A stretch of 64,000 nucleotides of DNA from an uncultured Methanomassiliicoccus sp. (GTDB lineage Archaea; Thermoplasmatota; Thermoplasmata; Methanomassiliicoccales; Methanomassiliicoccaceae). Numbering within the stretch: the first letter of the stretch is position 1; every line of letters begins with the position of its first letter. Location: NCBI GenBank assembly GCA_905202485.1, contig CAJKRY010000001.1, positions 92,456 through 156,455 on the forward strand, in the 5' to 3' direction. The notes beneath the pieces were generated by a model. That model had not been told where the DNA came from. It did no database searches and worked only from the letters and a program-made list of their open reading frames with translations. The position numbers and the translations under genes were made by a program. Below, piece after piece: positions 8,493-54,689 of the stretch.

Positions 8493-8758
8493 ACTTCCAG
8501 GACCTGCCCAGTATGCCAGTGGCAAACCAGAGCACCGAAAAAATAACAACCGGAGACTGGAGAACAATCAGACCTGTTTTAAATAAAGACTTATGCGACA
8601 GATGCTACCAGTGTTGGACATTCTGCCCTGATGTCAGTGTCATCGTTGAAGAAGAAGGATCATTTCCCAAGGTAGATCTGAACCACTGCAAAGGCTGCGG
8701 CATCTGCTCTATTGAATGCTCCAAACAGGCAATCACCATGGTGAGGGAAGATCTATGA
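8489..8758 (+). CDS. porD: pyruvate:ferredoxin oxidoreductase delta subunit (2x[4Fe-4S] ferredoxin)
   Basis: Two CxxCxxCxxxCP motifs (CDRCYQCWTFCP; CKGCGICSIECS); 4-nt overlaps with porG and porA. Confidence 0.85.
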   Translation: MNFQDLPSMPVANQSTEKITTGDWRTIRPVLNKDLCDRCYQCWTFCPDVSVIVEEEGSFPKVDLNHCKGCGICSIECSKQAITMVREDL

Positions 8759-39547: not shown

Positions 39548-39659
39548 ATACTCACCATTTTTTACAAATGCAATAGCTAACTGGTATAAAATCACATGGT
39601 ATCAATAATAATTTTAAGAATAAAAGTAAGACTAGAGATGAGACCGCTCATCCTCAGTC

Positions 39660-41012
39660 TCAGATGGTTCTTCTCTTGAGTTTACCGTCTTTGTCCCGAT
39701 AGTATGCAGTACCATACGGCGCATGCAGCAGAGGAATTATATCAGGATCATAATTGCACAGCGTGTTTAATGAATAGATTCCTGTATTAAGAGGATTGTC
39801 TAAATACTCATCCGGTTCGTCACCTGCAAAAAATCTCCAGCCGCTGTCTGGAATGTCTGGATCTGGATCCTCCCGATACATATATCCTATTTTTTCACCG
39901 TTGACCATTATGCGATCTGTGGCTTTACAGCCTAATGGTTCATACCAGTCCAGCAGTATAGATTGAATCTCTTCGCGTGGAATGGCAAGGTTTTTCTTAG
40001 ATTCAGAAACGCACCGACTTGGTCTGTTGAGATCGACAACATAATCAATGCCATCCAACAAATGCAGCAGCTCCTCTTTATTATGACTCAGTTTATATTC
40101 GATCTCTTCACTGTACAGCGGAACTATCTGATAGAAATTGATGCATTCTCCGTTCGGCATAATACATTTGTCTGCTCCTTCATCAAAGTCAACCATGGTG
40201 CAGACGATCATGCCTGAAAGTTTGGTATTCTCTGCTAAAGGCTCATTGTTTGATACAGTATGTCCCCAGGCTAACCAAGTGTTCTGCTCCCCCGGCAGCC
40301 TGGCCATAACTTTCAGCCATTTTACCGGCCAGAACCACATTTCGTTGCTGCTGTTTAAGGGCCAGTCAGGAGGAAGGCAGATAATGAGTTCTGCCCTGTC
40401 AAAGTTTTCTCCTTCGAGATTTAGCGGCACGGTCATGCGATGGGCGCCCATTCCCATAGTTACCAGCGTGTAATAATTACGTTCCGGAGTAGGCTCAATG
40501 ATTGCTATGTCTACACGAATATCCGGAGATACTATCTCATGAAAAACTCTGTTGAAAGAGCCGATGCGTTTTTCGATGTGCCTCTGAACGACTTTAAGCT
40601 GCTCTTCAGTATAGATCTCCGGGTCAAAATTTTCCTGTTTCAAACCAGCCTCTTCCTGCAGCTTTTCTTTGCATATGCCTATGTAATGCATTACGGCCTC
40701 ATCGCTCTGATCCATTTCCCAGGCCTTCTCAAATTCCTCTCTGGAGCTGTCAAAGTTCTCCAAGTAGAAATATGCGTAACCAAGCATATAATGCCAGAAG
40801 TAATCGTCTTTTCCCTCGTCCTCAATTAAAAGAAGTTGTTCAACAGCCTCATCATATCTCTTTAAATCGTTGAGGGCCCTCGCAAGATGAAAAATCACGT
40901 CGTAATCCATCTCTTCTTCAACCATTAATGAAATTTCATCCAGGATCTTCTGGAACTCCTTTTCCTCATGCCATTTATTTAATTTATAAAGAGTTTCTTT
41001 GTCCATCGTCAT
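39660..41012 (-). CDS. immunity-protein-like: shared helical N-module + SUFU-like domain + Imm33/DUF2185-like C-terminal domain
   Basis: Central region YYTLVTMGMGAHRM...WPVKWLKVMARLPGEQNTWLAWGHTV parallels SUFU motifs (human SUFU: HYISFGLSDLYG...TWPAELMQGLARY...GDHV); C-terminal GWRFFAGDEPDEY... resembles Imm33; N-terminal about 100 aa homologous to two neighbours. Confidence 0.55.
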   Translation of the reverse strand: MTMDKETLYKLNKWHEEKEFQKILDEISLMVEEEMDYDVIFHLARALNDLKRYDEAVEQLLLIEDEGKDDYFWHYMLGYAYFYLENFDSSREEFEKAWEMDQSDEAVMHYIGICKEKLQEEAGLKQENFDPEIYTEEQLKVVQRHIEKRIGSFNRVFHEIVSPDIRVDIAIIEPTPERNYYTLVTMGMGAHRMTVPLNLEGENFDRAELIICLPPDWPLNSSNEMWFWPVKWLKVMARLPGEQNTWLAWGHTVSNNEPLAENTKLSGMIVCTMVDFDEGADKCIMPNGECINFYQIVPLYSEEIEYKLSHNKEELLHLLDGIDYVVDLNRPSRCVSESKKNLAIPREEIQSILLDWYEPLGCKATDRIMVNGEKIGYMYREDPDPDIPDSGWRFFAGDEPDEYLDNPLNTGIYSLNTLCNYDPDIIPLLHAPYGTAYYRDKDGKLKRRTI

Positions 41013-41018
41013 TCCTTC

Positions 41019-42503
41019 TTATCTTAATATATAATCATCTGAAAAATTAAATGATACCATCATGACTGATCCGCTTATCTCAAGGTCATCCCCTTTTTCC
41101 TTTGCATCACAGATCGCACTATAAACTGAACTTATATAGACATAAGATGAAAATGTATCATTCAAGAAAAGATTGCTGCTAAATCCATTTATTAGCGCTT
41201 TTTGAATTACATAATAACTTGCAATCTGCGTTTTATAAACCTCTATACTTTTTCTATTCCTGTAGATCAATATTGATTCAGGAGAATGAAGATATTCAAA
41301 TGCATTTTCAGCACACATTTCCGGAATGAAAAACTGCAGCTCTTCAGCAAGATTTGAATCCTGAAGCTCTTCCGTCAGTTTTTCCAGATAATGCTGGTAA
41401 TCATCGTCAGATGCACATTGCTCAAAGAGTCTGACTGCTTTTACAGTAGCGTCTTCCAGATCTTTCTCGCTGTAAGGGTATTCCACATAAGTCCCCTCAT
41501 CCTGTGTGATGAAGAAAAACTGTTTCTTGGAACTGAACTCATTTGTTTCCCATTTAGAAGCTATTTCTGAAACTATGCTGCTGAGCTCTTCGCTGACAAT
41601 GTTATTAACACGGCATTCTGCTGTAATTTCATCTCCATTTTTAGCAGCATATACTTTGACATATGCAAATTTTTGATTTCCAAGGCGTTTGGCAATTCCG
41701 CTTTTCAACAGACTCCAGAATTCATCAATGTCGCCGCCCTCTGGGTTTTTGCCCATGCCGACAATATCTGATTTGTATGCGTGCCAGCTGTGTTTACTGC
41801 CTGCAAACTCTGTAACTAACGTTTCTGAGTTCTCTCCGGCCTTCATGATTCTGATGCCGTCCAAGACTGAGAATAGAAAACTCCCTTCTGCTAGATTAAT
41901 TGCCTTCTTCGGCGTATCTCCCAAGGCAACCGAGCACTCAAACAGTTCTCTGTCCCATGAACTGCAGTTTAGAGTAAAATACAAAACGGCCATGTTTTCC
42001 GTCAGTTCCCCTACTTCAGAAGAAATGGTTAAATCCCATTCAGGAATGAATATATTGCCTTTTTTGATCAGATTAGTTTCAGCAATCAGCTCATGAAGAC
42101 CTTCAAGAACATACTGCCGGGGGTCATCGGGGGCAGAAGAATCATCTGTACGCTTAAGATAGTAGTTACAGTCTTCCAGAAGTTCTTTGGCATCTTTGTC
42201 ATCAGGATTTAATTCAAGAACACACTCAAACTCTTTTTTAGCTTCCAGATCATTTCCCAAAAAATAATAAGCGTATCCCAGACGGTAATGCCACAAATCG
42301 TCGTCTTTTCCTTCTTCGTTTACAGAAAGCAGAAGTTTAACAGCATTTTCATAGTCTTCTAAATTATTATAAGCTCTTGCCAGTAAGAGAATGAGATCAT
42401 AATTTCTTTCAGATTCTGGAATATCTAGAATAGAGTCCACGATCTTTTGGTGTTCTTCAGATTTATGCCAGCCGTCTAACTGCTCGATGAATTCTGATGA
42501 CAT
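41019..42503 (-). CDS. paralogous N-module protein with unrelated C-terminal domain (function unknown)
   Basis: N-terminus GWHKSEEHQKIVDSI...LARAYNNLEDYENAVKLLLSVNEEGKDDDLWHYRLGYAYYFL aligns with the N-termini of 39660..41012 and 43247..44743; remainder has no recognisable motif. Confidence 0.5.
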   Translation of the reverse strand: MSSEFIEQLDGWHKSEEHQKIVDSILDIPESERNYDLILLLARAYNNLEDYENAVKLLLSVNEEGKDDDLWHYRLGYAYYFLGNDLEAKKEFECVLELNPDDKDAKELLEDCNYYLKRTDDSSAPDDPRQYVLEGLHELIAETNLIKKGNIFIPEWDLTISSEVGELTENMAVLYFTLNCSSWDRELFECSVALGDTPKKAINLAEGSFLFSVLDGIRIMKAGENSETLVTEFAGSKHSWHAYKSDIVGMGKNPEGGDIDEFWSLLKSGIAKRLGNQKFAYVKVYAAKNGDEITAECRVNNIVSEELSSIVSEIASKWETNEFSSKKQFFFITQDEGTYVEYPYSEKDLEDATVKAVRLFEQCASDDDYQHYLEKLTEELQDSNLAEELQFFIPEMCAENAFEYLHSPESILIYRNRKSIEVYKTQIASYYVIQKALINGFSSNLFLNDTFSSYVYISSVYSAICDAKEKGDDLEISGSVMMVSFNFSDDYILR

Positions 42504-42519
42504 TGTAATTTCCTCCTGA

Positions 42520-43245
42520 TCAATAATCCAGCCTTATTGGAACTTTATTCTCTTTAGCAAACAAAACTGCTTTGTAAAATATGCAGTATGCAAATTTAGA
42601 CAAGGCGTCAAAATCAAAAGTATCTTTATCGGCATCAGAAGCTACCTCAGTATTCAACCAGCTGAGAATGGTCTCTTCATCCGCATTCCATCTCATTTTA
42701 TTCATATATTGAAGATCAGATTCCAATTGTTCCACTGTGGACATGTTAGCCTCTTTACCAGTTGGAAATATGTAACTGAATGACATGCATCCCTCAAACG
42801 GAACCCACATTTCAATTCCATTCAGAAACGGATTTGTATATGATTCGTTTATAACAAAAGTCTGCACTACAGGATCATCATTCCAATCACTGGATTTTTC
42901 ATAGAATTTAGGAACTTCTTTTCCAGAATACAGGCATGCACTTAAAATGACTAAAGCACCATAACCATCCCAGCCTGGTTTATCAGTGTAATATTCTTTT
43001 TCATTATTTTCTTCCCAAGACTTAAACAAAATGTCTTTGTCAGACAGCCCGCTTGTCAAAGCCTCCATCCAGAGTTCAACTGAGTGCTGGACTTCTTCAG
43101 CATCTATGTTTTCATTTCTCATTTCACCATTTGGTGTTATGATGTCACAGCGGATGTTATTTTGTTCAGACCACTGTTGGACAGTAGTTTTCCAGTTGCG
43201 GGTGTAATACCTTGTCAATGTACCAGCATATATATCTAGACCCAT
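42520..43245 (-). CDS. hypothetical protein within the immunity-like operon
   Basis: 241 aa, acidic, Trp-rich, no TM or signal; start codon 1 nt from upstream gene stop. Confidence 0.4.
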   Translation of the reverse strand: MGLDIYAGTLTRYYTRNWKTTVQQWSEQNNIRCDIITPNGEMRNENIDAEEVQHSVELWMEALTSGLSDKDILFKSWEENNEKEYYTDKPGWDGYGALVILSACLYSGKEVPKFYEKSSDWNDDPVVQTFVINESYTNPFLNGIEMWVPFEGCMSFSYIFPTGKEANMSTVEQLESDLQYMNKMRWNADEETILSWLNTEVASDADKDTFDFDALSKFAYCIFYKAVLFAKENKVPIRLDY

Positions 43246-43246
43246 T

Positions 43247-44743
43247 TTATAACCTCATTTCAGAACTAAGATTAACTATGTTTCCATCTGGACAAAAATC
43301 GGCTAAATAAAATTCAAATTGATAATTTTTTAACAAACTGTCAATCCTTTTGAAAAATTCAGTCATGTTGTAAATCAGCAGATCTGCATACTCATACATA
43401 CTGCCGCCGGCGCTTCCCAGAGACATTCCGATTTCTCTGCCGCTCCCTTTCTCCCCAAGAACTTCTTTTATCAGATAATCTTCAAAATCATATCTGAGAT
43501 CAAACAGCTTGTCTTCATCCATTTCCATCGGCCATGTGTAGAATAGGTAAACAAGCTTAGCTCCGCAGCTCTCCATATCTGCGTATGTATCTTTTACATC
43601 AGAATGATATTCAGCAACTGAGTTTAAAAGAGATGTTAAACCGCTGAGTATGTCATATCTCAATTTGTCAGTGTCAGCATTTCCAAAGGCATATGCAACA
43701 CGGATGTCGCTGGGATTCTCGATCATTTCTTTTCCCGATGATTTTAGAATGTCGGATATTTTCTCACCCATCTGATCAATGGGAAACATATCATCCGTTG
43801 GAGAACGCAATAATGATACTGTGCTTATATAAAGTCTCAATAGATTTTCACTGAATAATTCTTTCAGCATCTTAGCAAATGTAATGTTTGCTTCACTGTC
43901 TTCAATTGATTGAAAATCTTCTGAATAAAAACACAAGTTAAATTTGTCAGATTCATAATTGAATGATATTTTAATATTTTTTATCGGAAATCCATTGACT
44001 GAAAGGTCAGAATTATAACTATTTAGTTTAGGTGCAGATAAGATAATATTCCATTTATTCTGAATGTTCTTTGGCGCCCTGAAGATAAGATATGGAAGCA
44101 GGTAGTGAAGATGACTGCTGCCTCTTAAAACAAATATGAGTTTGAATCCTTTTTCAATGAAACATTGAATGTTTTTAGTTATTAAATCCGTGCCTTCTGA
44201 AAGAAAAGCTGCGACTTCTGAATTACATGCACCATTTTCAGCAAATTCCGATAATTTTGCTTCATGGTCACAAAACCACTTCCAGAACGAAGATACTCTG
44301 TCAGAGAATTGATTCGACGGAATGAGTTCATGTCTGGAAACAAATCTCTCTGACAATTTTTCTAGATGAAGTTTGACATAATGATGAATATGACAGAATT
44401 CTACAAAGTCTGAAGCATAATCCCCTTCAGGGTTCAATTCAAATGCTTTATCAATCTCTTCATTTACTTTTGTCATCTCGTTTGTAAAATAATACGCCTG
44501 ACCCAGCATGAAATGCCACATATAATCTTCAGCACCTTTATCGCTGACTGAAAGGAGGCAATCTATGGCTTCTCGATACTTGTAAGTGTGCAGATACGCC
44601 TCAGCTAAGAGAGTTACAAGACCATAGTCCAATTTATAATCTGAAATTCTTGTAATCACTCTAACTATGCTGCAATAATCTCCGTTTCTGCGCAGATCAT
44701 CCAAACGTTGACAAAACTCCTGTTTCACCTGAATCAATTTCAT
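43247..44743 (-). CDS. paralogous N-module protein with a third, distinct C-terminal domain
   Basis: N-terminus ...YGLVTLLAEAYLHTYKYREAIDCLLSVSDKGAEDYMWHFMLGQAYYF aligns with the other two; first gene of the 4-gene minus-strand operon. Confidence 0.5.
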   Translation of the reverse strand: MKLIQVKQEFCQRLDDLRRNGDYCSIVRVITRISDYKLDYGLVTLLAEAYLHTYKYREAIDCLLSVSDKGAEDYMWHFMLGQAYYFTNEMTKVNEEIDKAFELNPEGDYASDFVEFCHIHHYVKLHLEKLSERFVSRHELIPSNQFSDRVSSFWKWFCDHEAKLSEFAENGACNSEVAAFLSEGTDLITKNIQCFIEKGFKLIFVLRGSSHLHYLLPYLIFRAPKNIQNKWNIILSAPKLNSYNSDLSVNGFPIKNIKISFNYESDKFNLCFYSEDFQSIEDSEANITFAKMLKELFSENLLRLYISTVSLLRSPTDDMFPIDQMGEKISDILKSSGKEMIENPSDIRVAYAFGNADTDKLRYDILSGLTSLLNSVAEYHSDVKDTYADMESCGAKLVYLFYTWPMEMDEDKLFDLRYDFEDYLIKEVLGEKGSGREIGMSLGSAGGSMYEYADLLIYNMTEFFKRIDSLLKNYQFEFYLADFCPDGNIVNLSSEMRL

Positions 44744-44870: not shown

Positions 44871-46211
44871 ATGGCCATGCAGAGGGATTTAACAAACGGT
44901 AGTGTTACCAAAACAATGCTGCTATTTGCCTGGCCGATGATTTTAGGCAATCTTCTGCAACAAGTTTACAATGTCGCTGATACCCTGATAGTTGGAAGAT
45001 GCATCGGCCCTGACGCTCTGGCTGCCGTGGGGTCTTCTTTTGCATTAATGGTTTTTCTGACATCTATCATCATAGGACTGTGTATGGGAAGCGGAGTCGT
45101 TTATTCCATATTTTTTGGTGCCAGAGAGAAAGAAAAACTGAAATCCAGTTTCTTCATGTCATTTGTATTCATTGCCGTTGTTACCATTGTAATCCAAATT
45201 GCAACATTGTGCCTGGTTGATCCGATACTCAGCGCACTGCATATTCCGTCTGAAGCATACAGCGCAACTAAAAGCTACCTTACAATAACCCTGTATGGCG
45301 TTATTTTCATTTTTGTATACAATTACTTTACCTCAGTACTGAGAGGCATTGGCAACTCCACAACCCCTCTGATATTTTTAGGAGTGGCAGTAGTTCTGAA
45401 TGTCGCTCTTGATCTGATACTGATAATATCATTCGACATGGGTGTAGAAGGAGCCGCCATTGCAACTGTGATTTCTCAGGCTGTGTCTGCAGCATCTATT
45501 GCCATATACTGCATACTGAAGACCCCTGAATTAAGATTGAAAAGAAAACACCTGAAATTTGAAAAATCGATATTGAATAAGATCGTACAATATTCATCTT
45601 TGACTTGTATACAGCAGTCGATTATGAACTTCGGGATTCTGATGGTTCAAGGGCTGGTCAACAGTTTCGGAGTTTCGGTAATGGCCGCATTTGCAGCCGC
45701 AGTGAAAATCGACTCCTTTGCATACATGCCTGTCCAGGATTTTGGAAATGCATTTTCTACTTACGTAGCACAAAATTACGGAGCTAAGAAATCAGAAAGA
45801 ATACATGAAGGAATAAAATCTGCAATAAAGGTATCTTTAATCTTCTGCATCATCATTTCAGCAATAGTTGTGATATTCGCCAAACCTCTAATGACATTAT
45901 TTGTGAGTCCAGAAGATGTTGAAATTATTGCAATCGGCGTTCAGTACCTCAGAATAGAAGGAGCCTGCTACTGCGGAATAGGCTGCCTCTTCCTTCTTTA
46001 CGGTCTGTACCGCGGAGTAGGAAAACCAGCGATATCTATTGTATTAACTGTTATTTCACTGGGAACCAGAGTACTGCTGGCGTACGTCTTGGCGGCGATG
46101 CCCTCAATCGGCCTGGTAGGAATCTGGTGGGCGATACCGATAGGCTGGGTGTTAGCAGACATCGCTGGAATTATGTACTATATACGAAATAAAAAATTGA
46201 TAACTGTGTAG
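44871..46211 (+). CDS. MATE family efflux transporter
   Basis: 12 TM, LLFAWPMILGNLLQQVYNVADTLIVGR N-terminus typical of MATE/NorM. Confidence 0.85.
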   Translation: MAMQRDLTNGSVTKTMLLFAWPMILGNLLQQVYNVADTLIVGRCIGPDALAAVGSSFALMVFLTSIIIGLCMGSGVVYSIFFGAREKEKLKSSFFMSFVFIAVVTIVIQIATLCLVDPILSALHIPSEAYSATKSYLTITLYGVIFIFVYNYFTSVLRGIGNSTTPLIFLGVAVVLNVALDLILIISFDMGVEGAAIATVISQAVSAASIAIYCILKTPELRLKRKHLKFEKSILNKIVQYSSLTCIQQSIMNFGILMVQGLVNSFGVSVMAAFAAAVKIDSFAYMPVQDFGNAFSTYVAQNYGAKKSERIHEGIKSAIKVSLIFCIIISAIVVIFAKPLMTLFVSPEDVEIIAIGVQYLRIEGACYCGIGCLFLLYGLYRGVGKPAISIVLTVISLGTRVLLAYVLAAMPSIGLVGIWWAIPIGWVLADIAGIMYYIRNKKLITV

Positions 46212-46262
46212 TCTGGTTCATGAAGATAAAAATCAGCTTCATGAACAGACATCTAATAGAGT

Positions 46263-47000
46263 TTAGTCTTCATCACCGTATGCAAGATCAATATCTATGA
46301 ACTGGATTACCAGCTGGCATATTTTTCCGTCTGCATCATATCCAAAGTACACAGGATAAGTGCCGTCCCCAAATCCTGTTTGAAAAATCGGCAGATGGTA
46401 ATTTGTTCCGGGTATTACCCAGTTTATCCAGTCCCCTTCTTTCCGCTGATGCTTCGGGTTTTCAGCATAGCTCTTTGCAAAGATCGCTGCGAAGTAATCA
46501 TCATAGATGTTTTTACCTGGATTGTTCTCAGACCAGGTGTCATAAAATTCACAGAATATATCTCTTATAGCAACATCGCATATACACGCTAAGCCTGCAT
46601 CTACATTGAAACCGAAATATTCATCATCTTCAAGTTCTGAGAGATTTTCATTCCCGATGAGCGCTTCTTCAAAAACCACAGCTTCTTTTTTAGTGAATTG
46701 AACACGTACTGCAGCATATCGTGAACAGTCAGAATCGTCTCCGCAGACTACACAGGCAACGGCATGAAACTCACCAGGAGGCACCTCTGTAAAATATGGT
46801 TCTTCTTCGCAGTCGAGATAGCACAGCGGATCCCTTACCAGGATTATTCCAGTAGGGATGGATACCAGCCCGAAGTCCAGCAGATCTAATTTCTTACCTG
46901 CCATTTCTGACAGGGTAAAGTAGTCATTTAAGGGAGCTGGACATGCTAATTTTTCACGATGTTTGTTAAATGAACTGATCCACTCTGCAGTAGGTTTCAT
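46263..47000 (-). CDS. DUF4241-like protein
   Basis: C-terminal FQTGFGDGTYPVYFGYDADGKICQLVIQFIDID resembles the DUF4241 signature; 245 aa, cytoplasmic. Confidence 0.45.
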   Translation of the reverse strand: MKPTAEWISSFNKHREKLACPAPLNDYFTLSEMAGKKLDLLDFGLVSIPTGIILVRDPLCYLDCEEEPYFTEVPPGEFHAVACVVCGDDSDCSRYAAVRVQFTKKEAVVFEEALIGNENLSELEDDEYFGFNVDAGLACICDVAIRDIFCEFYDTWSENNPGKNIYDDYFAAIFAKSYAENPKHQRKEGDWINWVIPGTNYHLPIFQTGFGDGTYPVYFGYDADGKICQLVIQFIDIDLAYGDED

Positions 47001-47048
47001 TGGTCTCTCAATACTGTGATTCCATTATAGAGTTATCTGCAACATTCA

Positions 47049-47726
47049 TCATGTCGTTTCGTTCAGTTTAAACTTGTTTTTTTCAAATTCAATCAAACCC
47101 TCGTTTCTCAGCTTAGACAACTCATTAGACATGGCGCTTCTGTCTACAGAGAGATAGTCGGCAAGCTGCTGCCTGTTGAAGGGTATTTCAAATTCGGAAC
47201 TGCGGGATTTCTTAGACTGCTCTGAAAGATATGAAAGAAGCTTTTCTCTGATGCTGCGCTTTGAAGTATGCTCTATTCTTTTAGTCAGCACGAGATTTTT
47301 TTCTGCGAGACTCCAGAGCAGGTTACGAATAAGAATCGAATGAAATTCACATGCTGAAGTACAGACATTCATGATTTTATTTACATTAACGAAAAGAATG
47401 TCAGTGCGCTCTGTAGCAATCACACTCACTTCCAATCTTTCGGTGCCTAAACATGCATAAGCTTCAGCAAAAATCTGACCGTTGCTCAGGCTGGTGAGAA
47501 TGTTGTCGTTTCCCCAGAAATCCTCTTTCACAATATGCACATTTCCAGTCAGAACGATGCCGATGTTGTGTACGATGTCACCGCTCCGCAATATAACTGA
47601 ATCCTTCTGGTATCTTTTAACAGTGGCACCCATGCAGTCTAAGATAGATAGAATCTCATCATCATTCATGCTGGAAAATAAAGGAGAATTTCGTATCAAA
47701 TGCAGATATTTCTTCATCATATTCAC
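47049..47726 (-). CDS. Crp/Fnr-family transcriptional regulator (HcpR-like candidate)
   Basis: cNMP-binding beta-barrel region and C-terminal HTH SRQQLADYLSVDRSAMSNELSKLRNEGLI; divergent from ferredoxin-hcp. Confidence 0.8.
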   Translation of the reverse strand: MNMMKKYLHLIRNSPLFSSMNDDEILSILDCMGATVKRYQKDSVILRSGDIVHNIGIVLTGNVHIVKEDFWGNDNILTSLSNGQIFAEAYACLGTERLEVSVIATERTDILFVNVNKIMNVCTSACEFHSILIRNLLWSLAEKNLVLTKRIEHTSKRSIREKLLSYLSEQSKKSRSSEFEIPFNRQQLADYLSVDRSAMSNELSKLRNEGLIEFEKNKFKLNETT

Positions 47727-47730
47727 TTAT

Positions 47731-47744
47731 GTTGTTTTTACAAC
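47731..47744. promoter_or_regulatory. FNR/HcpR-type palindrome GTTGT-N4-ACAAC in the crp/fd-hcp divergent region
   Basis: gttgtttttacaac read directly; perfect 5-bp arms with 4-nt spacer. Confidence 0.35.
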
Positions 47745-47792
47745 GTAATCGTTTTATTTACTATATCACATTTGCTACAATGGTGAAGGAAC

Positions 47793-48476
47793 ATGATGCG
47801 AAAGATAGTGAAGATTAATGAGGAAAAATGCAACGGCTGCGGCATATGTGCAGATGCATGCCATGAAGGTGCCATTCAGATTATAAACAACAAAGCAAAA
47901 TTGATCAAAGATGATTACTGCGACGGCTTGGGAGACTGCCTACCGGGCTGTCCGACTGGGGCCATATCCATTGAAGAAAGAGAAGCTGCAGAGTACGACG
48001 AAAAAGCTGTGAAATCTCATCTGCAGAATAAAGAGAAAAAACTCGGCTGCGGATGTTCTGATGAAAATGTAAAAATTATTGACAATTTAAGCAACGAACG
48101 CTGTCTGAACCAGTGGCCGGTACAGATTAAATTAGTTCCGGTAAACGCCCCATACTTTGAGAATTCGGATCTGCTGATCGCTGCTGACTGCACTGCCTTT
48201 GCATATGCAGATTTTCACAAGGACTTTATCAAAAACTGCATTGCATTAGTAGGCTGTCCCAAACTGGATTCAGTAGATTACAGTGAAAAAATTTCTGAAA
48301 TTATAAAAAATAACAAGATCAACAGCATCAAAGTCGTAAAAATGGAGGTGCCATGTTGTAGCGGTTTAGAGAATGCAGTAAAGAAGGCTCTGCAGAACAG
48401 CGGCAAAAACATTCCTCTGAATGTCGTAACAATATCAATTAAGGGTAAAATAATTAAAAATATTGCAGGTGATTAA
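47793..48476 (+). CDS. 4Fe-4S dicluster domain protein (ferredoxin-like N-terminus plus extra domain)
   Basis: CNGCGICADACHEGAI and CDGLGDCLPGCPTGAI motifs; translationally adjacent to hcp. Confidence 0.6.
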   Translation: MMRKIVKINEEKCNGCGICADACHEGAIQIINNKAKLIKDDYCDGLGDCLPGCPTGAISIEEREAAEYDEKAVKSHLQNKEKKLGCGCSDENVKIIDNLSNERCLNQWPVQIKLVPVNAPYFENSDLLIAADCTAFAYADFHKDFIKNCIALVGCPKLDSVDYSEKISEIIKNNKINSIKVVKMEVPCCSGLENAVKKALQNSGKNIPLNVVTISIKGKIIKNIAGD

Positions 48477-48477
48477 A

Positions 48478-50040
48478 ATGGATACGAAGATGTTCTGTTT
48501 TCAGTGTGAACAAACTGCCGGATGTAAAGGGTGCACTGGCGAAAGCGGAGTATGCGGAAAGCCTTATGCAGTGGCAAATGCACAAGACGAGCTGACACAA
48601 GTGTTGATCAGCCTTTCACAGTCTCTTGATGGAAAAACACCTGATGATGAACAGCGCCGCCTCATGCTTGAAGGACTGTTCAGCACAGTCACTAACGTCA
48701 GCTTTGACGGTGAAAAGGTATCTGCATTAACCAATGAAATTAAATCGCTGTGTTCCTGCAGCAGCTGCGAACATCATGCATTCCAACTATGGACTGAAGA
48801 GGAAGATATCCGCTCTCTCAAATCACTTATTCTATTCGGCCTGAGGGGAATGGCAGCCTATGCACACCATGCGATGATTCTTGGGTATCAGGACAATGAA
48901 GTTTCGGACTTCTTTTTTGAAGGCTTAAGAGCCGTGGGAGATCAGAAAGCAGACATGAGCGGACTGCTGCTTGTTGTAATGGAAGTCGGCAGAATCAACC
49001 TCAAATGCATGGAACTGCTTGATAAAGCCAATACTGAAACGTATGGAAACCCTGTGCCGACAACTGTTTCACTTACTGTAGACAAGGGTCCGTTTATCAT
49101 TGTGACGGGACATGACTTGAAAGATCTGAAGCTTCTTCTTGAACAGACGGAAGGAAAAGGAATTAATATTTACACACACGGAGAAATGCTGCCTGCTCAT
49201 GCATATTCAGAACTTAAGAAATACAGCCATCTCAAAGGCAATTTCGGTACTGCCTGGCAGAATCAGAGAAAAGAATTCTCCGATATTCCGGCACCTATTC
49301 TGTTTACAACGAACTGCCTGATGCCGCCTAAGCAGAACTATGCAGACCGTATATTCACGACAGGAGTCGTGACATTTCCTGGAGCCGTGCACATCAATGA
49401 AAATAAGGATTTTACGCCGGTCATCGAAAAAGCGCTGGAACTCGGAGGTTATGCTAATGATGTAGAGTTCACAGGCATAAACGGCGGTAAAGAAGTCACA
49501 ACTGGTTTTGGACATGCCGCTGTGCTATCAATTGCAGATAGGATTATTGATGCCATCCACAGCGATGCAATCAAACATTTCTTCCTGGTAGCAGGATGCG
49601 ACGGAGCAAAATCTGGACGCAGTTACTACACAGACTTTGTCAAACTGACACCGCCTGACTCCATAGTGCTGACCTTAGCATGCGGCAAATACCGGTTCAA
49701 TGATCTTGATCTAGGCACTATTGCAGGCATCCCCAGACTGTTGGATATGGGACAGTGCAATGATGCATACAGTGCAATACGTGTAGCTGTGGAGCTTGCT
49801 AATGCCCTGGACTGCGGCGTAAACGATCTGCCGCTTTCATTTGTCATTTCCTGGTATGAACAGAAGGCAGTCAGTATTCTGCTGACTCTGCTGTATCTCG
49901 GAATCAAAAACATCCGCCTGGGTCCATCTATTCCGGCATTCATCTCCCCAAACGTTCTGGCATACCTTGTTGAGAACTTTGGCATTGCTCCGACAACTAC
50001 ACCAAAAGAAGATATGAAAGACCTGCTCCGACAGACCTGA
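48478..50040 (+). CDS. hcp: hybrid cluster protein / hydroxylamine reductase
   Basis: N-terminal Cys cluster MFCFQCEQTAGCKGCTGESGVCGK and full-length Hcp/prismane similarity. Confidence 0.9.
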   Translation: MDTKMFCFQCEQTAGCKGCTGESGVCGKPYAVANAQDELTQVLISLSQSLDGKTPDDEQRRLMLEGLFSTVTNVSFDGEKVSALTNEIKSLCSCSSCEHHAFQLWTEEEDIRSLKSLILFGLRGMAAYAHHAMILGYQDNEVSDFFFEGLRAVGDQKADMSGLLLVVMEVGRINLKCMELLDKANTETYGNPVPTTVSLTVDKGPFIIVTGHDLKDLKLLLEQTEGKGINIYTHGEMLPAHAYSELKKYSHLKGNFGTAWQNQRKEFSDIPAPILFTTNCLMPPKQNYADRIFTTGVVTFPGAVHINENKDFTPVIEKALELGGYANDVEFTGINGGKEVTTGFGHAAVLSIADRIIDAIHSDAIKHFFLVAGCDGAKSGRSYYTDFVKLTPPDSIVLTLACGKYRFNDLDLGTIAGIPRLLDMGQCNDAYSAIRVAVELANALDCGVNDLPLSFVISWYEQKAVSILLTLLYLGIKNIRLGPSIPAFISPNVLAYLVENFGIAPTTTPKEDMKDLLRQT

Positions 50041-50157
50041 TAAGTTTCATCTAAGCGCTTCAGAGCTGTCTGGAGCACTTTTTATTTATTTTATATTGAT
50101 ATCCTCAGAGTTACTGATCTCTATATATGCGTCAATAGCATTTCAGATAAGACAGAC

Positions 50158-50781
50158 ATGGAGAAATATGAAAAGTATCTGCACATGCTGGTGGATGAAA
50201 TCCACTCCACAATTTTTGCTACAGTAGACAGCAGCGGAAATCCTGTGACTTGTGCAATAGACATAATGCTAGCAGATGAAGATGGGCTATACTTTCTGAC
50301 CGCCAAAGGAAAAGCATTCTATGAACGCCTTGTAGCTCATCCGATTATATCGCTTACAGGAGTAAAAGGCAAAGACACCATGTCTTCAAAGTCTGTGACA
50401 ATCTGCGGAAAGGTAAAGGAGATTGGAGACGGCCTCCTTTCCGAAATTTTCGCAAAGAATCAGTACATGGCTGATATATATCCTGAAGAAAAAAGCCAGA
50501 AAGCATTGACTGTCTTTCAGATTTATGAAGGTGAGGGGGAGTTCTTTGATCTCAGTGTAAAGCCGATATTCAGAGAAAAGTTTTCATTTGGAAATACTGC
50601 CGTCAAGGAAACAGGATACTTTGTCACAGGAAAATGCGACGGCTGCGGATTATGCGTCGATATCTGTCCTCAGAAATGCATTGATGCATCATGTATTCCA
50701 TTTAGAATTGAAGAGGAACACTGCCTGCATTGCGGCAGATGTGCTGAAGTATGCAACCAGCAGGCCATAGAAAGAAGATGA
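50158..50781 (+). CDS. pyridoxamine-5'-phosphate-oxidase-like FMN-binding split-barrel domain fused to 2x[4Fe-4S] ferredoxin
   Basis: N-terminal PNPOx-like fold (IFATVDSSGNPVTCAIDIM), C-terminal CDGCGLCVDICP and CLHCGRCAEVCN. Confidence 0.6.
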   Translation: MEKYEKYLHMLVDEIHSTIFATVDSSGNPVTCAIDIMLADEDGLYFLTAKGKAFYERLVAHPIISLTGVKGKDTMSSKSVTICGKVKEIGDGLLSEIFAKNQYMADIYPEEKSQKALTVFQIYEGEGEFFDLSVKPIFREKFSFGNTAVKETGYFVTGKCDGCGLCVDICPQKCIDASCIPFRIEEEHCLHCGRCAEVCNQQAIERR

Positions 50782-51554
50782 TAAAAATGAAACAGGAAAA
50801 ACGCCTCCAATGGCTGATTGAATATCTTCTGCAAGAAAATGAAGACTATCGAAAAATACCGTCGTCTGAGTATGAAAGAAAACAGTTGCTGCGGGCCTTG
50901 ATGAATGTAAGGATGCCAAACGGAATTGACGAAAAATTCTTAGAAATACAGGATGAGTATCTCTCAGAAGAACTGTCAAAGAAGACGATTGCTTCATTGA
51001 AGAATATTAGCCCTGTGGATGAGCATATTTACCTCTGGAAAGGAGATATTACCACACTGGAAGTGGATGCCATTGTTAATGCTGCCAACAGCTCGCTTTT
51101 AGGATGCTTCGTTCCCGGGCATGCCTGTATTGATAATGCAATTCATTCTGCAGCAGGAGTGCAACTCAGGCTTGCATGCGATGAAATCATAACGAAGCAG
51201 GGAAAGAAAGAACCCACTGGAACATCTAAGATAACTTTTGCATACAATCTGCCGTGCCGTTATGTCATTCATACGGTCGGACCGATAATTCAAAATGAAG
51301 TCACAAAGAGAGAATGCGATCTGCTCGAATCCTGCTACATGTCGTGTCTGAATCTTGCTGCTGATCATGATGTAAAAAGCATAGCCTTATGCTGTATATC
51401 TACGGGAGAGTTTCATTTCCCCAATGAGCTTGCAGCCGAGATTGCTGTGCACTCTGTGAAAAAATTCCTAAATAATCATAAAATGGACGTAATATTCAAT
51501 GTTTTCAAAGAAGTGGACTATGATATCTACAGACGATTACTCAATACAAATTGA
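50778..51554 (+). CDS. macrodomain protein (MacroD-type ADP-ribosyl hydrolase, SirTM-associated type)
   Basis: GDITTLEVDAIVNAANSSLLG...GACIDNAIHSAAG macrodomain motifs after an about 90-aa helical N-extension; ATG overlaps upstream stop (ATGA). Confidence 0.75.
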   Translation: MIKMKQEKRLQWLIEYLLQENEDYRKIPSSEYERKQLLRALMNVRMPNGIDEKFLEIQDEYLSEELSKKTIASLKNISPVDEHIYLWKGDITTLEVDAIVNAANSSLLGCFVPGHACIDNAIHSAAGVQLRLACDEIITKQGKKEPTGTSKITFAYNLPCRYVIHTVGPIIQNEVTKRECDLLESCYMSCLNLAADHDVKSIALCCISTGEFHFPNELAAEIAVHSVKKFLNNHKMDVIFNVFKEVDYDIYRRLLNTN

Positions 51555-52371
51555 ACGCCTCCAATGCGAGCTTGATTGTGCTGATGCCATATTGGTAGGC
51601 GGCGGTTCAGGCCTGTCTACATCTGCAGGTTTGACATATTCTGGAAAACGATTTGAAGAAAACTTCTCAGATTTCATTTCCAGATACGGTTTCAGAGATA
51701 TGTATTCTGCAGGATTCTATCCATATCAAACGACAGAAGAATACTGGGCATACTGGAGCAGGCATATTTATTTCAACAGATACGACAGGCCTGCCGGACA
51801 GCCATACTTAGATTTATTAAAAATTGTAAAGAAAAAGGATTATTTTGTAATTACAACCAATGTGGATCATCAATTTCAAATCTCCGGATTTGATAAAGAC
51901 AGATTGTTTTACACGCAGGGAGATTATGGACTGTGGCAGTGCTCAAAACCGTGCCATCAGAAGACATATGACAATGAAGCGATTGTACGTCGCATGGTAT
52001 CTGAACAAAAAGACATGAAAATACCTGCAGGACTCATACCATACTGTCCCCTCTGCGGAAGAAAAATGAGCATGAATCTGCGCATTGACAATAACTTTGT
52101 AGAAGATGAAGGCTGGCATTCGGCAACAAAACGCTACTCTCAGTATATACAGAAACATCAAAACAGCCATGTTATGTTTTTAGAGTTGGGAGTAGGAAGC
52201 AATACTCCGGCCATTATCAAATATCCATTCTGGAATATGACACATTCAAACCCAAAAGCAGTTTATGCCTGCATAAATCTGGGTGAAGCATACACAGCTA
52301 AAGAGATCAAAGATCGTTCCATATGCATTAATGAAGACATAGGTAAAGTTCTGAGAGAGATTGTTGCATAA
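51499..52371 (+). CDS. macrodomain-linked sirtuin (SirTM-like, SIR2 family)
   Basis: Rossmann motif ILVGGGSGLSTSAGL (GAGIS-like), TTNVDHQFQ (catalytic His region), Zn ribbon CSKPC...CPLCG; overlaps macro gene 3' end. Confidence 0.65.
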   Translation: MFSKKWTMISTDDYSIQIERLQCELDCADAILVGGGSGLSTSAGLTYSGKRFEENFSDFISRYGFRDMYSAGFYPYQTTEEYWAYWSRHIYFNRYDRPAGQPYLDLLKIVKKKDYFVITTNVDHQFQISGFDKDRLFYTQGDYGLWQCSKPCHQKTYDNEAIVRRMVSEQKDMKIPAGLIPYCPLCGRKMSMNLRIDNNFVEDEGWHSATKRYSQYIQKHQNSHVMFLELGVGSNTPAIIKYPFWNMTHSNPKAVYACINLGEAYTAKEIKDRSICINEDIGKVLREIVA

Positions 52372-52525
52372 GATATTACAAAGATTCAATAGCTTAAAGT
52401 TTGAGCAAACTCTAAGTTTAAATAATATGTGTGATGTCCCTGTAATCAATCGAAGAATTCAGAAAATCAATGAAATGATACTTTCAAAATTACACTGAAG
52501 ACTATACAGATAAGGAGGAGCTAAA

Positions 52526-53665
52526 ATGGAAAAATCAAAAGTTTACTATACTGACCTACGCACAGTTGCATTCGGCAACGGACTGCCTGCTAAACTTAAA
52601 GAATTGATCAAAGCTGCTGGAATTGAGCAGATCGATATGAGAGGCAAGTTTGTTGCTATAAAGATGCACTTCGGTGAACTGGGCAACATCTCATACCTGC
52701 GTCCAAACTATGCTAAAGCTGTTGCTGATTTAGTCAAAGAATTGGGAGGAAGACCATTTCTGACTGACTGTAATACAATGTACCCTGGAAGCCGCAAAAA
52801 TGCTCTGGAGCATCTGGAATGCGCATGGGAAAACGGTTTTACACCTCTATCTACAGGCTGCCCGATCATAATCGGCGACGGTCTGAAAGGCACCGATGAC
52901 ATCTCTGTACCAGTTGTAGACGGAGAATATGTCAAAAACGCCAAGATAGGCCGTGCAATAATGGATGCTGATGTAATCATCAGTCTGACTCATTTTAAAG
53001 GCCATGAAATGACAGGCTTTGGAGGTGCGATTAAAAACTTAGGCATGGGCTGCGGTTCCCGCGCTGGAAAAACAGAACAGCACAGCAACAGTCAGGCATG
53101 CATCGATGAAGAGAAATGCCGCGGGTGCCGCTTATGCCAAAGAGAGTGTGCCAACAACGGCCTGATCTTTGATGAAAAGAAAAAGAAGATGAGCATTGAC
53201 TCTAAAAATTGTGTAGGGTGCGGCCGCTGTCTGGGAGCATGCAACTTTGATGCCATTTCATTTGATAATTCCAGTGCCCTGGAAGAATTGAACTGCCGCA
53301 TGGCTGAGTATACAAAAGCTGTTGTTTACGGCCGTCCGCAGTTCCATGTATCTCTGATTATCGATGTCTCACCTAACTGCGACTGCCACTGCGAGAATGA
53401 TGTACCCATCCTGCCAAACATCGGAATGTTCGCATCGTTTGACCCGTTAGCTCTCGATCAAGCATGTGTCGATGCCTGTCTTGCAGCTCAGCCGTTACCT
53501 AACAGCCAGCTCAGTGACAACATGAAGAAAAAAGACTTTGTTGATCATCATGACCACTTCACCAATTCCACTCCTGAGTCAGAATGGCAGAGCTGCCTGA
53601 ATCATGCTGAAAAGATCGGCCTGGGAAGCAGATCTTATGATCTGATGTTTGTAAAAACAAATTAA
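52526..53665 (+). CDS. DUF362 domain protein with inserted 2x[4Fe-4S] ferredoxin domain
   Basis: DUF362-like N-terminal (VAIKMHFGELGN...FLTDCNTMY) and CRGCRLCQREC / CVGCGRCLGACNFDAI clusters. Confidence 0.6.
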   Translation: MEKSKVYYTDLRTVAFGNGLPAKLKELIKAAGIEQIDMRGKFVAIKMHFGELGNISYLRPNYAKAVADLVKELGGRPFLTDCNTMYPGSRKNALEHLECAWENGFTPLSTGCPIIIGDGLKGTDDISVPVVDGEYVKNAKIGRAIMDADVIISLTHFKGHEMTGFGGAIKNLGMGCGSRAGKTEQHSNSQACIDEEKCRGCRLCQRECANNGLIFDEKKKKMSIDSKNCVGCGRCLGACNFDAISFDNSSALEELNCRMAEYTKAVVYGRPQFHVSLIIDVSPNCDCHCENDVPILPNIGMFASFDPLALDQACVDACLAAQPLPNSQLSDNMKKKDFVDHHDHFTNSTPESEWQSCLNHAEKIGLGSRSYDLMFVKTN

Positions 53666-53675
53666 GTGAAAAACA

Positions 53676-53706
53676 GCCTCCTTTTGGAGGCATTTGATAT
53701 TTTTTA
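53676..53706 (+). terminator. hairpin GCCTCC-tttt-GGAGGC followed by T-rich run
   Basis: Perfect 6-bp stem 53676-53691, then atttgatatttttt; 10 nt after DUF362 stop. Confidence 0.45.
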
Positions 53707-53761
53707 ATTATAATCTAAATTGGAATAACTCTACATTATTCAATTGTTTCTCAAAATCATT

Positions 53762-53820
53762 CTATATCGCATCGTGATATAGTTTATATATCATGACGTG
53801 ATATAGTGTAATGTGATATA
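53762..53820. promoter_or_regulatory. candidate PadR operators: two palindromes with GATAT half-sites plus a third half-site
   Basis: CTATATC-gcatcgt-GATATAG (53762-53782), ATATCA-tgacg-TGATAT (53788-53804), gtgatata (53813-53820), all within 65 bp upstream of padR. Confidence 0.4.
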
Positions 53821-53826
53821 AGAAGA

Positions 53827-54153
53827 GTGAAGGAAATGAATCTGGACAAAGCAATGAAACGATACATTCCAATGAGTGAGACCATGTTCTACATTCTCCT
53901 ATCTCTTCGTGAAGAACGCCATGGATATGGAATAATGCAACATGTTGAAGAACTGACACATGGAAGAATCAAGCTTGGAGCAGGAACCATCTATCAAAGT
54001 CTAAGTAAACTGAACGGAGACGAGCTTATCAGACCAACTGAAGAAGTAGACAGGCAGAAAAAATATGTGATTACTGAGTTAGGAAATCAAATTTTGACAA
54101 AAGAAGCAGACAGAATAAGAGAACTATACAGCGCAGTGGAGGAGTTGCTATGA
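53827..54153 (+). CDS. PadR-family transcriptional regulator
   Basis: Winged HTH YILLSLREERHGYGIMQHVEELTHGRIKLGAGTIYQSLSKL typical of PadR. Confidence 0.75.
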   Translation: MKEMNLDKAMKRYIPMSETMFYILLSLREERHGYGIMQHVEELTHGRIKLGAGTIYQSLSKLNGDELIRPTEEVDRQKKYVITELGNQILTKEADRIRELYSAVEELL

Positions 54154-54689
54154 ATGATAAAAAGACTGAATTGTTTGCTGGATTCAAATATTATGTACCA
54201 GCAGACTTTGAAAAATTCATGGAAAAGAATGCTGCAGAAGGATGGAATGTTGATGAAATTCATCAATGGAGTTCAGTAGCTATGAAGTTTCATAGAACTG
54301 AGCCTAAAAAATATAGATATGTCATAGATCTGAACGCATTTCCCACTGAAGAATATAAAGAAACATACAGACAGTTTGGTTGGGAGTATATGGGCAGAAT
54401 GGCAAGCATGTATGTCTGGAGAAGAGAATATTCAGACGAAAGGCCAGAAGCATTCACAGACTGTCAGAGTGTAAGAAAAAGAAATATGAATGTGTTTTGG
54501 GTAATCACAGCACTAAACATATTTCTGATTGCCTCGATGATCGCCTTGACGGTATTGTACTTTGGAGATTACACTTCAGAAGTTTCAGAAGATCTGGTTG
54601 GCTACTCAATAGCAATGGTTCTTCTGGCAGCTATGACCGCAATAATGCTTTATGTATCCAATGGAATCTATAAAAATAGACAAAGGTGA
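54150..54689 (+). CDS. DUF2812-like PadR-associated membrane protein
   Basis: ATGA overlap with padR; soluble N-domain (AEGWNVDEI) plus two C-terminal TM helices, the usual partner architecture of PadR. Confidence 0.5.
   Translation: MNDKKTELFAGFKYYVPADFEKFMEKNAAEGWNVDEIHQWSSVAMKFHRTEPKKYRYVIDLNAFPTEEYKETYRQFGWEYMGRMASMYVWRREYSDERPEAFTDCQSVRKRNMNVFWVITALNIFLIASMIALTVLYFGDYTSEVSEDLVGYSIAMVLLAAMTAIMLYVSNGIYKNRQR

Follow-up and report, generated by a model that had tools for sequence, protein, structure and literature searches.

Class-M sirtuins (SirTMs) and the zinc macrodomain proteins (Zn-Macros) linked to them occur in three genetic contexts, namely an extended operon, a lone pair and a fusion of the two (Ariza et al. 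2024, PMC11490716). The SirTMs are defined by Asn118, by Gln137, standing where other sirtuins have their catalytic histidine, and by Arg192; they are without deacylase activity, and mutation of the glutamine to histidine abolishes all activity (Rack et al. 2015, PMC4518038). The Zn-Macros are defined by a Cx4HxC zinc loop replacing the Gly-rich loop, by NAAN and Dx3H motifs and by an N-terminal extension (PMC11490716). GcvH-L is the only SirTM substrate known so far, and the oxidoreductases associated with the classical operon (OYE and LLM) are not the substrate of ADP-ribosylation (PMC4518038). Among the archaea, Zn-Macro/SirTM operons of Methanobrevibacter have been listed and the macrodomain of M. 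oralis (MorMacro, 8RSI) has been solved; this archaeal protein is unable to demodify GcvH-L, as is the case for Zn-Macros from lone pairs, and both the targets and the physiological role of lone pairs were stated to be unknown in the latest paper (PMC11490716). Here, a three-gene cassette is described that combines a SirTM and a Zn-Macro with a protein consisting of a PNPOx-like flavin mononucleotide (FMN) split barrel and a ferredoxin domain (PNPOx-Fer4). It lies in a 64,000-nucleotide (nt) stretch of DNA from an uncultured Methanomassiliicoccus sp. (GCA_905202485.1, contig CAJKRY010000001.1, positions 92,456 to 156,455), hereafter termed the window.

The cassette occupies positions 50158-52371, with all three genes (g1, g2 and g3) on the forward strand. 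In window coordinates, the cassette and its upstream region contain the following features:

50057..50098, + strand: terminator-like hairpin (50057-50076) with an 8-bp stem, followed by the T-rich run ACTTTTTATT, found in a hairpin scan
50120..50129, + strand: candidate archaeal TATA box TCTATATATG, ~30 nt upstream of the ATG of g1
50158..50781, + strand: g1, predicted PNPOx-like FMN split-barrel protein with a 2x[4Fe-4S] domain, 207 amino acids (aa), from Pfam, PDB, AlphaFold2 (AF2) and Foldseek
50778..51554, + strand: g2, putative Zn-Macro, 258 aa, from NCBIfam, PDB and motifs
51499..52371, + strand: g3, putative class-M sirtuin (SirTM), 290 aa, from PDB 5A3A and motifs

A first-pass annotation, made from the letters of the window, had described these genes as one apparent operon with an ATGA overlap and an overlap of about 50 nt, and this description holds. 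The g1/g2 junction is an ATGA overlap, g2 being counted from that ATG, while the g2/g3 overlap is 56 nt long, shortening to 35 nt if a second ATG at 51520 starts g3; overlaps of comparable kind between g2- and g3-type genes occur in related bacterial and archaeal loci. The GcvH-L and LplA2 partners, which the annotation had reported as absent, are indeed not found at the locus. No GcvH-like open reading frame (ORF) was detected in the window, although this was a weak test with an E. coli GcvH sequence as query; no LplA-like protein was recognised by eye among the window ORFs of at least 150 aa; and ORF clustering of 83 related loci yielded no GcvH or LplA cluster within -4.5/+3.5 kb of the SirTM.

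The operon thus contains g1, g2 and g3 only, and resembles the lone pairs of M. oralis (MorMacro, 8RSI-8RSK), Enterococcus faecalis and Treponema pedis rather than the extended GcvH-L/LplA2-type operon. As in the lone pairs, the same two enzymes are encoded with all defining motifs, the macrodomain gene precedes and overlaps that of the SirTM, and neither GcvH-L nor LplA2 accompanies them. It differs from them in the extra, translationally coupled PNPOx-2x[4Fe-4S] gene upstream, which is kept in 33/80 related bacterial genomes; these are the 80 closest species-level genomes among the matches listed, all of them bacterial and mostly Clostridia. The writer and eraser chemistry predicted here is that of the classical extended operon (PMC4518038), and in both systems flavin-dependent oxidoreductases accompany the pair and there is a link to oxidative stress, which for the cassette is a predicted one. 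However, the redox partner here is a split barrel fused to a ferredoxin domain and not OYE or LLM, the lipoyl carrier and lipoate ligase are not found, and the bacterial relatives of the cassette carry divergent HxlR or Rrf2 regulator genes. The reading preferred here, held tentatively and at slightly less than even confidence, is that the cassette represents a GcvH-L-independent variant of the SirTM/Zn-Macro system, which a gut Methanomassiliicoccus lineage acquired from gut Clostridia and kept functional, and of which the PNPOx-Fer4 protein is the dedicated client.

The SirTM and Zn-Macro enzymes

The g3 product matches the SirTM of Streptococcus pyogenes (SpySirTM; PDB 5A3A) over residues 6-284 with about 50% identity (E 6.5e-79), and the fungal Macro-SirTM fusion 8RSN with an E-value of 2e-25. 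The motifs GGGSGLS (at residue 34), TTNVD (at 119, incorporating N121 and D123), CSKPC and CPLCG are present, in agreement with the SIR2-family protein with a Rossmann motif and a zinc ribbon that had been annotated. The ribbon consists of C148/C152/C183/C186, and all four cysteines are invariant in an alignment of relatives. N121/D123/Q140/R195 are likewise invariant among the relatives and correspond by alignment to N118/D120/Q137/R192 of SpySirTM, the chain numbering of 5A3A being offset by +10 from the residue numbering of the S. pyogenes protein. The annotation had gone astray in designating TTNVDHQ as the catalytic-His region, as this motif aligns to TTNADN of SpySirTM (Asn118/Asp120), which is the NAD-ribose motif. 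The true catalytic-His position is occupied by Gln140 (YTQGDYG), opposite Gln137 of SpySirTM (IQGEYG), and the SirTM call is strengthened by this correction. The QG[DE] motif recurs in 82/84 related SirTM ORFs, while His-Gly is found at that site in 0/84. On the basis of these motifs and alignments g3 is classified as a class-M SirTM, and mono-ADP-ribosyltransferase activity without deacylation can be predicted from its similarity to SpySirTM and its intact catalytic residues.

The public names of the relatives would suggest something else, namely an ordinary NAD-dependent deacylase for g3, with g2 disposing of its product as an O-acetyl-ADP-ribose deacetylase. The M. intestinalis orthologue of g3 is labelled 'SIR2 family NAD-dependent protein deacylase' by NCBI, and 8RSI was deposited as 'O-acetyl-ADP-ribose deacetylase'. 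However, no Pfam match was obtained for g3, with PF02146 (SIR2) not matched even at E<=10, and the score with the deacylase model NF001754 is 17 bits, where 252 would be needed. The missing SIR2 match and the glutamine at the His site also set g3 apart from the deacylase sirtuins of classes I-IV and U (a place among the class U/III deacetylases would have spoken against the annotation), and the biochemistry of the SirTMs cited above speaks against deacylation. The motifs and profiles led to the rejection of this reading, which is considered very improbable; the public name probably does not fit the M. intestinalis orthologue either, given the glutamine in place of the catalytic histidine.

The g2 product exceeds the cutoff of the NCBIfam 'protein-ADP-ribose hydrolase' equivalog NF003163 (359 bits, cutoff 272, residues 4-257). 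Its best matches in PDB include the Zn-Macros of M. oralis (8RSI, E 5e-84), Staphylococcus aureus (5KIV/8RSL, E ~5e-70) and S. pyogenes (8RSM, E 2e-56), and the macrodomain part of the fungal fusion 8RSN is matched at E 5e-38. The AF1521 chains are matched at an E-value of ~4e-8 only, and a zinc loop stands in place of the Gly-rich catalytic loop, so that g2 does not group with the AF1521-type macrodomains, the grouping that would have counted against the annotation. The NAAN motif is found at residues 101-104, the Cx4HxC zinc loop at 110-117 (CFVPGHAC; C110, H115 and C117) and the Dx3H motif at 119-123 (DNAIH); the zinc loop is conserved in 77/77 related macrodomain ORFs. The Pfam Macro domain begins at residue 100, leaving an N-terminal extension of ~90-100 aa, close to the ~90 aa first noted. 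As this region aligns to 8RSI from residue 4 and to 5KIV from residue 6, the alignment coverage identifies it as the putative three-helix bundle of the Zn-Macros. By these sequence features g2 is a SirTM-linked zinc macrodomain, with a predicted role as protein-ADP-ribose hydrolase, or eraser. Both domains of the fungal Mfs1 Macro-SirTM fusions (8RSN), which are implicated in the oxidative-stress response, are homologous to g2 and g3, but here they are encoded by separate overlapping genes and are far closer to the bacterial enzymes.

The PNPOx-Fer4 protein as candidate client

The g1 product scores above the cutoffs of both Pfam PNPOx_N (PF01243; 38.5 bits, cutoff 28.1) and Fer4 (40.9 bits, cutoff 21.1), which accords with the FMN split-barrel/2x[4Fe-4S] protein that had been annotated. 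A split barrel (~residues 1-145) is followed by a 2x[4Fe-4S] domain (C160-C170 and C189-C199) with two complete CxxCxxCxxxC motifs, whose eight cysteines show no variation across 28 homologs. By sequence, PDB 2HHZ is matched at E 1.5e-15. The AF2 model has a predicted local distance difference test score (pLDDT) of 94.5, and its best Foldseek matches are PNPOx-related, NimA/NimC and GSP26 split barrels, with E-values from 4.5e-11 (2HHZ) to 1e-7 and target-normalised TM-scores of 0.71-0.79 for the split-barrel part. The N-terminal 145 residues share their fold with the split-barrel flavoproteins of S. suis (2HHZ), NimA/NimC (2IG6) and general stress protein 26 (GSP26; 2FHQ/2HQ7), from which g1 differs by its 2x[4Fe-4S] ferredoxin domain at the C-terminus; none of the solved structures among the PDB and Foldseek matches spans both domains. 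The profiles and the model together allow the g1 product to be assigned with confidence to a split-barrel flavoprotein plus ferredoxin fold, with FMN and cluster binding predicted. The family is small, with 69 clusters at E<=1e-30 in 1.84 billion representatives.

The closest non-archaeal SirTMs among the matches listed are bacterial and mostly from gut Clostridia (59-71% identity). Within the 80 genomes, the macrodomain gene lies directly upstream of the SirTM gene in 72, and a full-length g1 homolog is found upstream of the pair on the same strand in the 33 already mentioned (35-64% identity, median 55%). It abuts the macrodomain gene in 27/80, with 3-118 nt between matches, the spacing in most bacterial loci being 3-16 nt. 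Sampling from the side of g1 gave a concordant result: 4/4 independently sampled homologs on long contigs (58-66% identity) have Macro and SirTM genes downstream and an HxlR gene upstream, and seven loci from a metagenome scan with g1 include four with Macro and SirTM, one with Macro only and two that end after g1. At roughly 50% identity or above, g1 is accompanied by the pair wherever the locus is of sufficient length for a judgement, and PNPOx-Fer4 proteins of this subfamily therefore behave, as far as gene linkage can tell, as dedicated partners of the SirTM/Zn-Macro pair. The triad can accordingly be described, from its distribution, as a common Clostridial/bacterial cassette and not an archaeal innovation.

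Of the 83 related loci, 42 have a divergent regulator of the HxlR family and 9 have one of the Rrf2 type; an NAD_binding_10 protein recurs in 26, a small PNPOx-like protein in 12 and a 263-aa protein in 11, the last of which is encoded directly upstream of the macrodomain gene at the usual place of PNPOx-Fer4 (e.g. L006 6430-7221) and for which no Pfam or PDB relative was found. Counted over the 80 bacterial loci, an HxlR or Rrf2 regulator is present in 50, and 52 encode flavin or NAD(P)H proteins. The gene order varies in some loci. In six (L029, L082, L048, L081, L056 and L073) the SirTM gene has no adjacent macrodomain gene, and in some of these PNPOx-Fer4 or NAD_binding_10 is directly upstream, with g1 lying directly against the SirTM gene in L029 and L082. 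In L086 and L087 the macrodomain gene is downstream of that of the SirTM.

In the mechanism proposed for the cassette, the SirTM would attach a single ADP-ribose from NAD+ to a protein side chain and the Zn-Macro would remove the ADP-ribose put on by the SirTM. The g1 product, as a flavin and 2x[4Fe-4S] electron-transfer protein, would be the client, in place of the GcvH-L, OYE and LLM of the classical operon; its ADP-ribosylation would most likely switch the ferredoxin-to-flavin electron flow off or on, and this switch would serve a redox, electrophile or nitrosative stress response. The activities of g2 and g3 are predicted from characterised homologs at 50-60% identity. The stress role is suggested by the bacterial HxlR/Rrf2 regulators, the flavin/NAD(P)H proteins and, in the window, the neighbourhood of hcp. 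A client other than GcvH-L is likewise suggested, with the co-inherited PNPOx-Fer4 as the most parsimonious candidate, and it is gene association only that points to g1 as the SirTM substrate. The first-pass annotation had taken the co-transcribed redox protein to suggest a different ADP-ribosylation target. This idea gains support from the conservation of PNPOx-Fer4 as a partner of the pair in bacteria. The further proposal that PNPOx-2x[4Fe-4S] proteins are direct SirTM substrates wherever GcvH-L is absent, and that the modification gates a ferredoxin-dependent flavin reductase in strict anaerobes, both in gut Clostridia and, following the transfer, in methanogenic archaea, is regarded as possible but less likely than not.

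Several observations weigh against the PNPOx-Fer4 protein as a dedicated client. About half of the bacterial loci are without g1 and 19/83 have no recognisable redox gene beside the pair; the pair can thus evidently work without an operon-encoded client, which weakens the case for g1 as substrate. In the neighbour-joining SirTM tree, which was rooted on SpySirTM and carries no bootstrap support, the presence of g1 is scattered and defines no clade. No genuine fusion of g1 to a Macro or SirTM was found. Distant g1 relatives (32-44% identity; P0372, P0384, P0443 and P0397) have no macrodomain similarity downstream, on contigs of <2 kb. Finally, the HxlR, Rrf2, NAD_binding_10, small PNPOx and 263-aa proteins are absent from the window and the archaeal loci, and without HxlR/Rrf2 a stress regulation of the archaeal locus is conjecture.

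Alternatively, the pair might modify one or more targets encoded elsewhere in the genome, with PNPOx-Fer4 as a co-regulated stress or detoxification enzyme comparable to OYE and LLM, being neither substrate nor direct partner. The genes before the pair vary, as the counts above show, and look like parts of an HxlR/Rrf2 stress operon of modular make-up; many bacterial loci are without g1 or any cargo gene; the distribution of g1 on the SirTM tree is patchy; and the oxidoreductases of the classical operon provide a precedent for associated enzymes that are not substrates. We regard this as a substantial possibility, to which clearly less than even weight is given. It accounts less readily for the translational coupling of g1 to the macrodomain gene, by ATGA here and by close spacing in most bacterial loci, for the company of the pair in every judgeable locus of the g1 subfamily, for the position of g1 directly against the SirTM gene in a few loci without a macrodomain gene (L029 and L082), and for the archaeal version of the cassette, in which only g1 has moved with the pair and the bacterial accessory genes are absent.

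Four apparent fusions of g1 (P0011, P0256, P0382 and P0415) were rejected as assembly chimeras or duplications. On a single 1.3-kb metagenome contig (L100 105-1082, P0397) PNPOx-Fer4 is fused to NUDIX and the second cluster motif is truncated; this could represent a link to ADP-ribose metabolism, or else a frameshift or chimera.

Origin and maintenance of the cassette in Methanomassiliicoccus

The archaeal host that had been annotated is confirmed by core genes in the window, including those for proteasome beta, aCPSF1, the RFC large subunit, FEN1, geranylgeranyl reductase and deoxyhypusine synthase, and the same DNA is present in contigs from human-gut metagenomes, with lengths reaching 369 kb. 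The nearest named relatives are from Candidatus Methanomassiliicoccus intestinalis, with ~80% identity for g1, g2 and g3, while IleRS and FEN1 are 96% and 95% identical, respectively, to those of an M. intestinalis metagenome-assembled genome (MAG). In the SirTM tree, the Methanomassiliicoccus proteins and that of the triad locus L005 nest within the Clostridial clade, a placement from which the cassette is judged to have been acquired by horizontal transfer from gut Clostridia into Methanomassiliicoccus. L005, on a 14.4-kb contig of SRR9040427, is the closest triad outside Methanomassiliicoccus (SirTM 70-71% identical). Its neighbours belong to archaeal-type families (a UvrD-like helicase with MJ0043_C, and DUF7010), and it may represent a second archaeal lineage with the cassette.

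The first-pass annotation had presented the locus as a bacterial/fungal-type module in an archaeon. The module is real and its origin bacterial, but its occurrence in archaea is not new, pairs of this kind having been published (PMC11490716). Both this Methanomassiliicoccus and M. oralis are host-associated methanogenic archaea, and MorMacro is among the strong matches of g2. The two hosts differ in phylum, Methanomassiliicoccus belonging to the Thermoplasmatota, and bacterial macrodomains score higher against g2 than MorMacro does (~365 versus 285 bits), which suggests an acquisition separate from that of the Methanobrevibacter pair.

Among archaeal genomes, the comparison covered the Methanomassiliicoccus contigs. 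The M. intestinalis locus is fully syntenic, from Crp, Fer4, Hcp, g1, g2, g3 and DUF362 through to IleRS and FEN1, and the synteny is held in at least two species and in variants at 88-93% identity. Between the window and M. intestinalis, the ratio of nonsynonymous to synonymous substitutions (dN/dS) of the triad is 0.08-0.09, with dS values of 1.1-1.4 as compared to 0.8-2.3 for flanking genes. The similarity of dS to that of the flanks and the low dN/dS indicate vertical inheritance since the species split, under purifying selection. The proteins encoded by fer4, hcp, g1, g2 and g3 (window 47793-52371 versus L004 6243-10852) share 79-81% identity as compared to 89-96% for the flanks; given the similar dS, these five genes evolve ~4x faster at the protein level (dN/dS 0.08-0.09 versus ~0.02).

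A cassette of bacterial origin that is missing its bacterial regulators, and whose genes have diverged further between the two Methanomassiliicoccus genomes than their surroundings, might be taken for a decaying, non-functional remnant of horizontal transfer. The three reading frames are nonetheless intact, all catalytic and metal-binding motifs are present, and synteny and a TATA-like box are conserved; the remnant reading was rejected on the dN/dS values and is deemed extremely improbable. The TATA-like sequence TCTATATATG is invariant in the window, L004 and L092, within a conserved block (GTTACTG..TCTATATATG..TTCAGATAAGACA), despite the dS of ~1.1-1.4. This conservation suggests a separate archaeal promoter, with a short-leader or leaderless transcript, its promoter function being predicted from sequence. 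The M. intestinalis loci L004 and L092 have analogous hairpins with T-runs at this position, and the one in the window is a probable divide between the hcp unit and the cassette. A scan for sigma-70 promoters, which is not applicable to an archaeal host, found 18 where 15.8 were expected and was uninformative. Inclusion of hcp in the operon was rejected on account of the hairpin with T-run and the conserved TATA-like box in between, with read-through being possible.

A toxin-antitoxin-like or defensive role was also considered for the pair, in which the SirTM would be an ADP-ribosylating or NAD-consuming toxin, the macrodomain its antidote as in DarT/DarG, and g1 a passenger, the module being spread by mobile elements. 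An overlapping two-gene layout with the eraser first does resemble toxin-antitoxin pairs, the distribution is patchy and includes the jump from bacteria to archaea, and two bacterial copies of the cassette, both extending from HxlR to SirTM, lie beside mobile-element genes. The copy in L096 (HxlR, cargo, PNPOx-Fer4, Macro and SirTM) is adjacent to a TraG/type IV secretion system (T4SS) coupling protein, a PemK toxin and a resolvase (1-1132, 7740-8621), and that in L097 to Prim-Pol/VapE (1-1533); such neighbours are a plausible route for transfer to archaea. However, g3 is 50% identical to a highly substrate-specific, non-toxic enzyme (PMC4518038), and the six loci that keep a SirTM gene without an adjacent macrodomain gene do not fit a toxin, which could not do without its antidote. 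The linkage with HxlR/Rrf2 and flavoproteins fits a stress regulon, and the inheritance in Methanomassiliicoccus is vertical and under purifying selection. PADLOC models match none of g1, g2 and g3 at E<=0.01, on which grounds a SIR2-based anti-phage defence was also rejected. Little probability is accorded to a toxin or defence module.

Genomic surroundings and implications

The cassette follows a Crp-Fer4-Hcp unit and is located directly downstream of hcp (48463-50040). The first-pass annotation had placed it between hcp and the catalases, which is incorrect, as both catalase genes (34680-36134 and 37155-38648) are ~10-14 kb upstream of hcp. A DUF362-Fer4 gene (52526-53665) was excluded as a possible fourth member of the operon: a gap of 154 nt precedes it and it has its own AGGAGG, its linkage in bacteria is limited to 1/80 loci and is on the opposite strand, and its divergence differs from that of the cassette (94% versus 80%).

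The region 44871-54689 looks like a bacterial-type island, encoding MATE efflux, DUF4241, a Crp/Fnr-like regulator, a Fer4/AF_0155 protein, Hcp, the triad, DUF362-Fer4, PadR and DUF2812. It is flanked by archaeal core genes, upstream by those for RFC-L, aCPSF1 and the proteasome and downstream by those for IleRS and FEN1. Clostridial relatives of the island's Fer4 and Crp genes (48-63% identity) lie near the SirTM loci L034 and L044. The PadR and DUF2812 pair is intact in the window (53827-54689), whereas the M. intestinalis MAG retains uncalled remnants (L004 12291-12822, 55-68% identity), adjoining a 449-aa ORF and a glycosyltransferase gene that are both missing from the window. Further upstream, the two monofunctional catalase genes of this strict anaerobe (34680-36134, + strand, and 37155-38648, - strand) flank a radical-SAM gene (36200-37078, - strand), and beside them lies a gene (38756-39595, - strand) whose 279-aa product has a 2x[4Fe-4S] domain at its C-terminus. 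Between these and the island, four tandem genes (39660-44743, - strand), three of them encoding proteins of ~450-500 aa, form a cluster that M. intestinalis shares at 79-84%. For two of these genes, 41019-42503 and 43247-44743, each matches the counterpart of the other at ~35% identity, and one counterpart contains TPR and DUF6348 matches.

A new enzyme class is not revealed by the cassette, and the SirTM/Zn-Macro pair in archaea is already published. Novelty appears to lie in the conserved PNPOx-Fer4 partner, in an operon architecture of the HxlR/Rrf2 type and in the documented transfer from Clostridia to Methanomassiliicoccus. Methanomassiliicoccus, pyridoxamine and ferredoxin are never mentioned in the text and supplement of Ariza et al. 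2024 (PMC11490716), and a paper on the comparative genomics of the Methanomassiliicoccales does not mention sirtuin. The literature searched contained no paper combining sirtuin, macrodomain and HxlR, and no relevant paper joining Methanomassiliicoccus with ADP-ribosylation.

With GcvH-L as the sole precedent, an operon that recurs in a large clade of gut anaerobes, with HxlR or Rrf2, flavin/NAD(P)H proteins, PNPOx-Fer4, Zn-Macro and SirTM, constitutes a candidate regulon, and PNPOx-Fer4 a concrete, expressible and testable candidate client. The minimal unit that crossed into Methanomassiliicoccus comprises PNPOx-Fer4 and the pair. The cassette also documents that a switch for protein modification passed, in the human gut, from bacteria to archaea, where purifying selection has maintained it beside the nitrosative/oxidative stress gene hcp. 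If the proposed role holds true, PNPOx-Fer4 would be the first SirTM target besides GcvH-L, and the cassette the first archaeal regulatory protein ADP-ribosylation circuit with a defined client.

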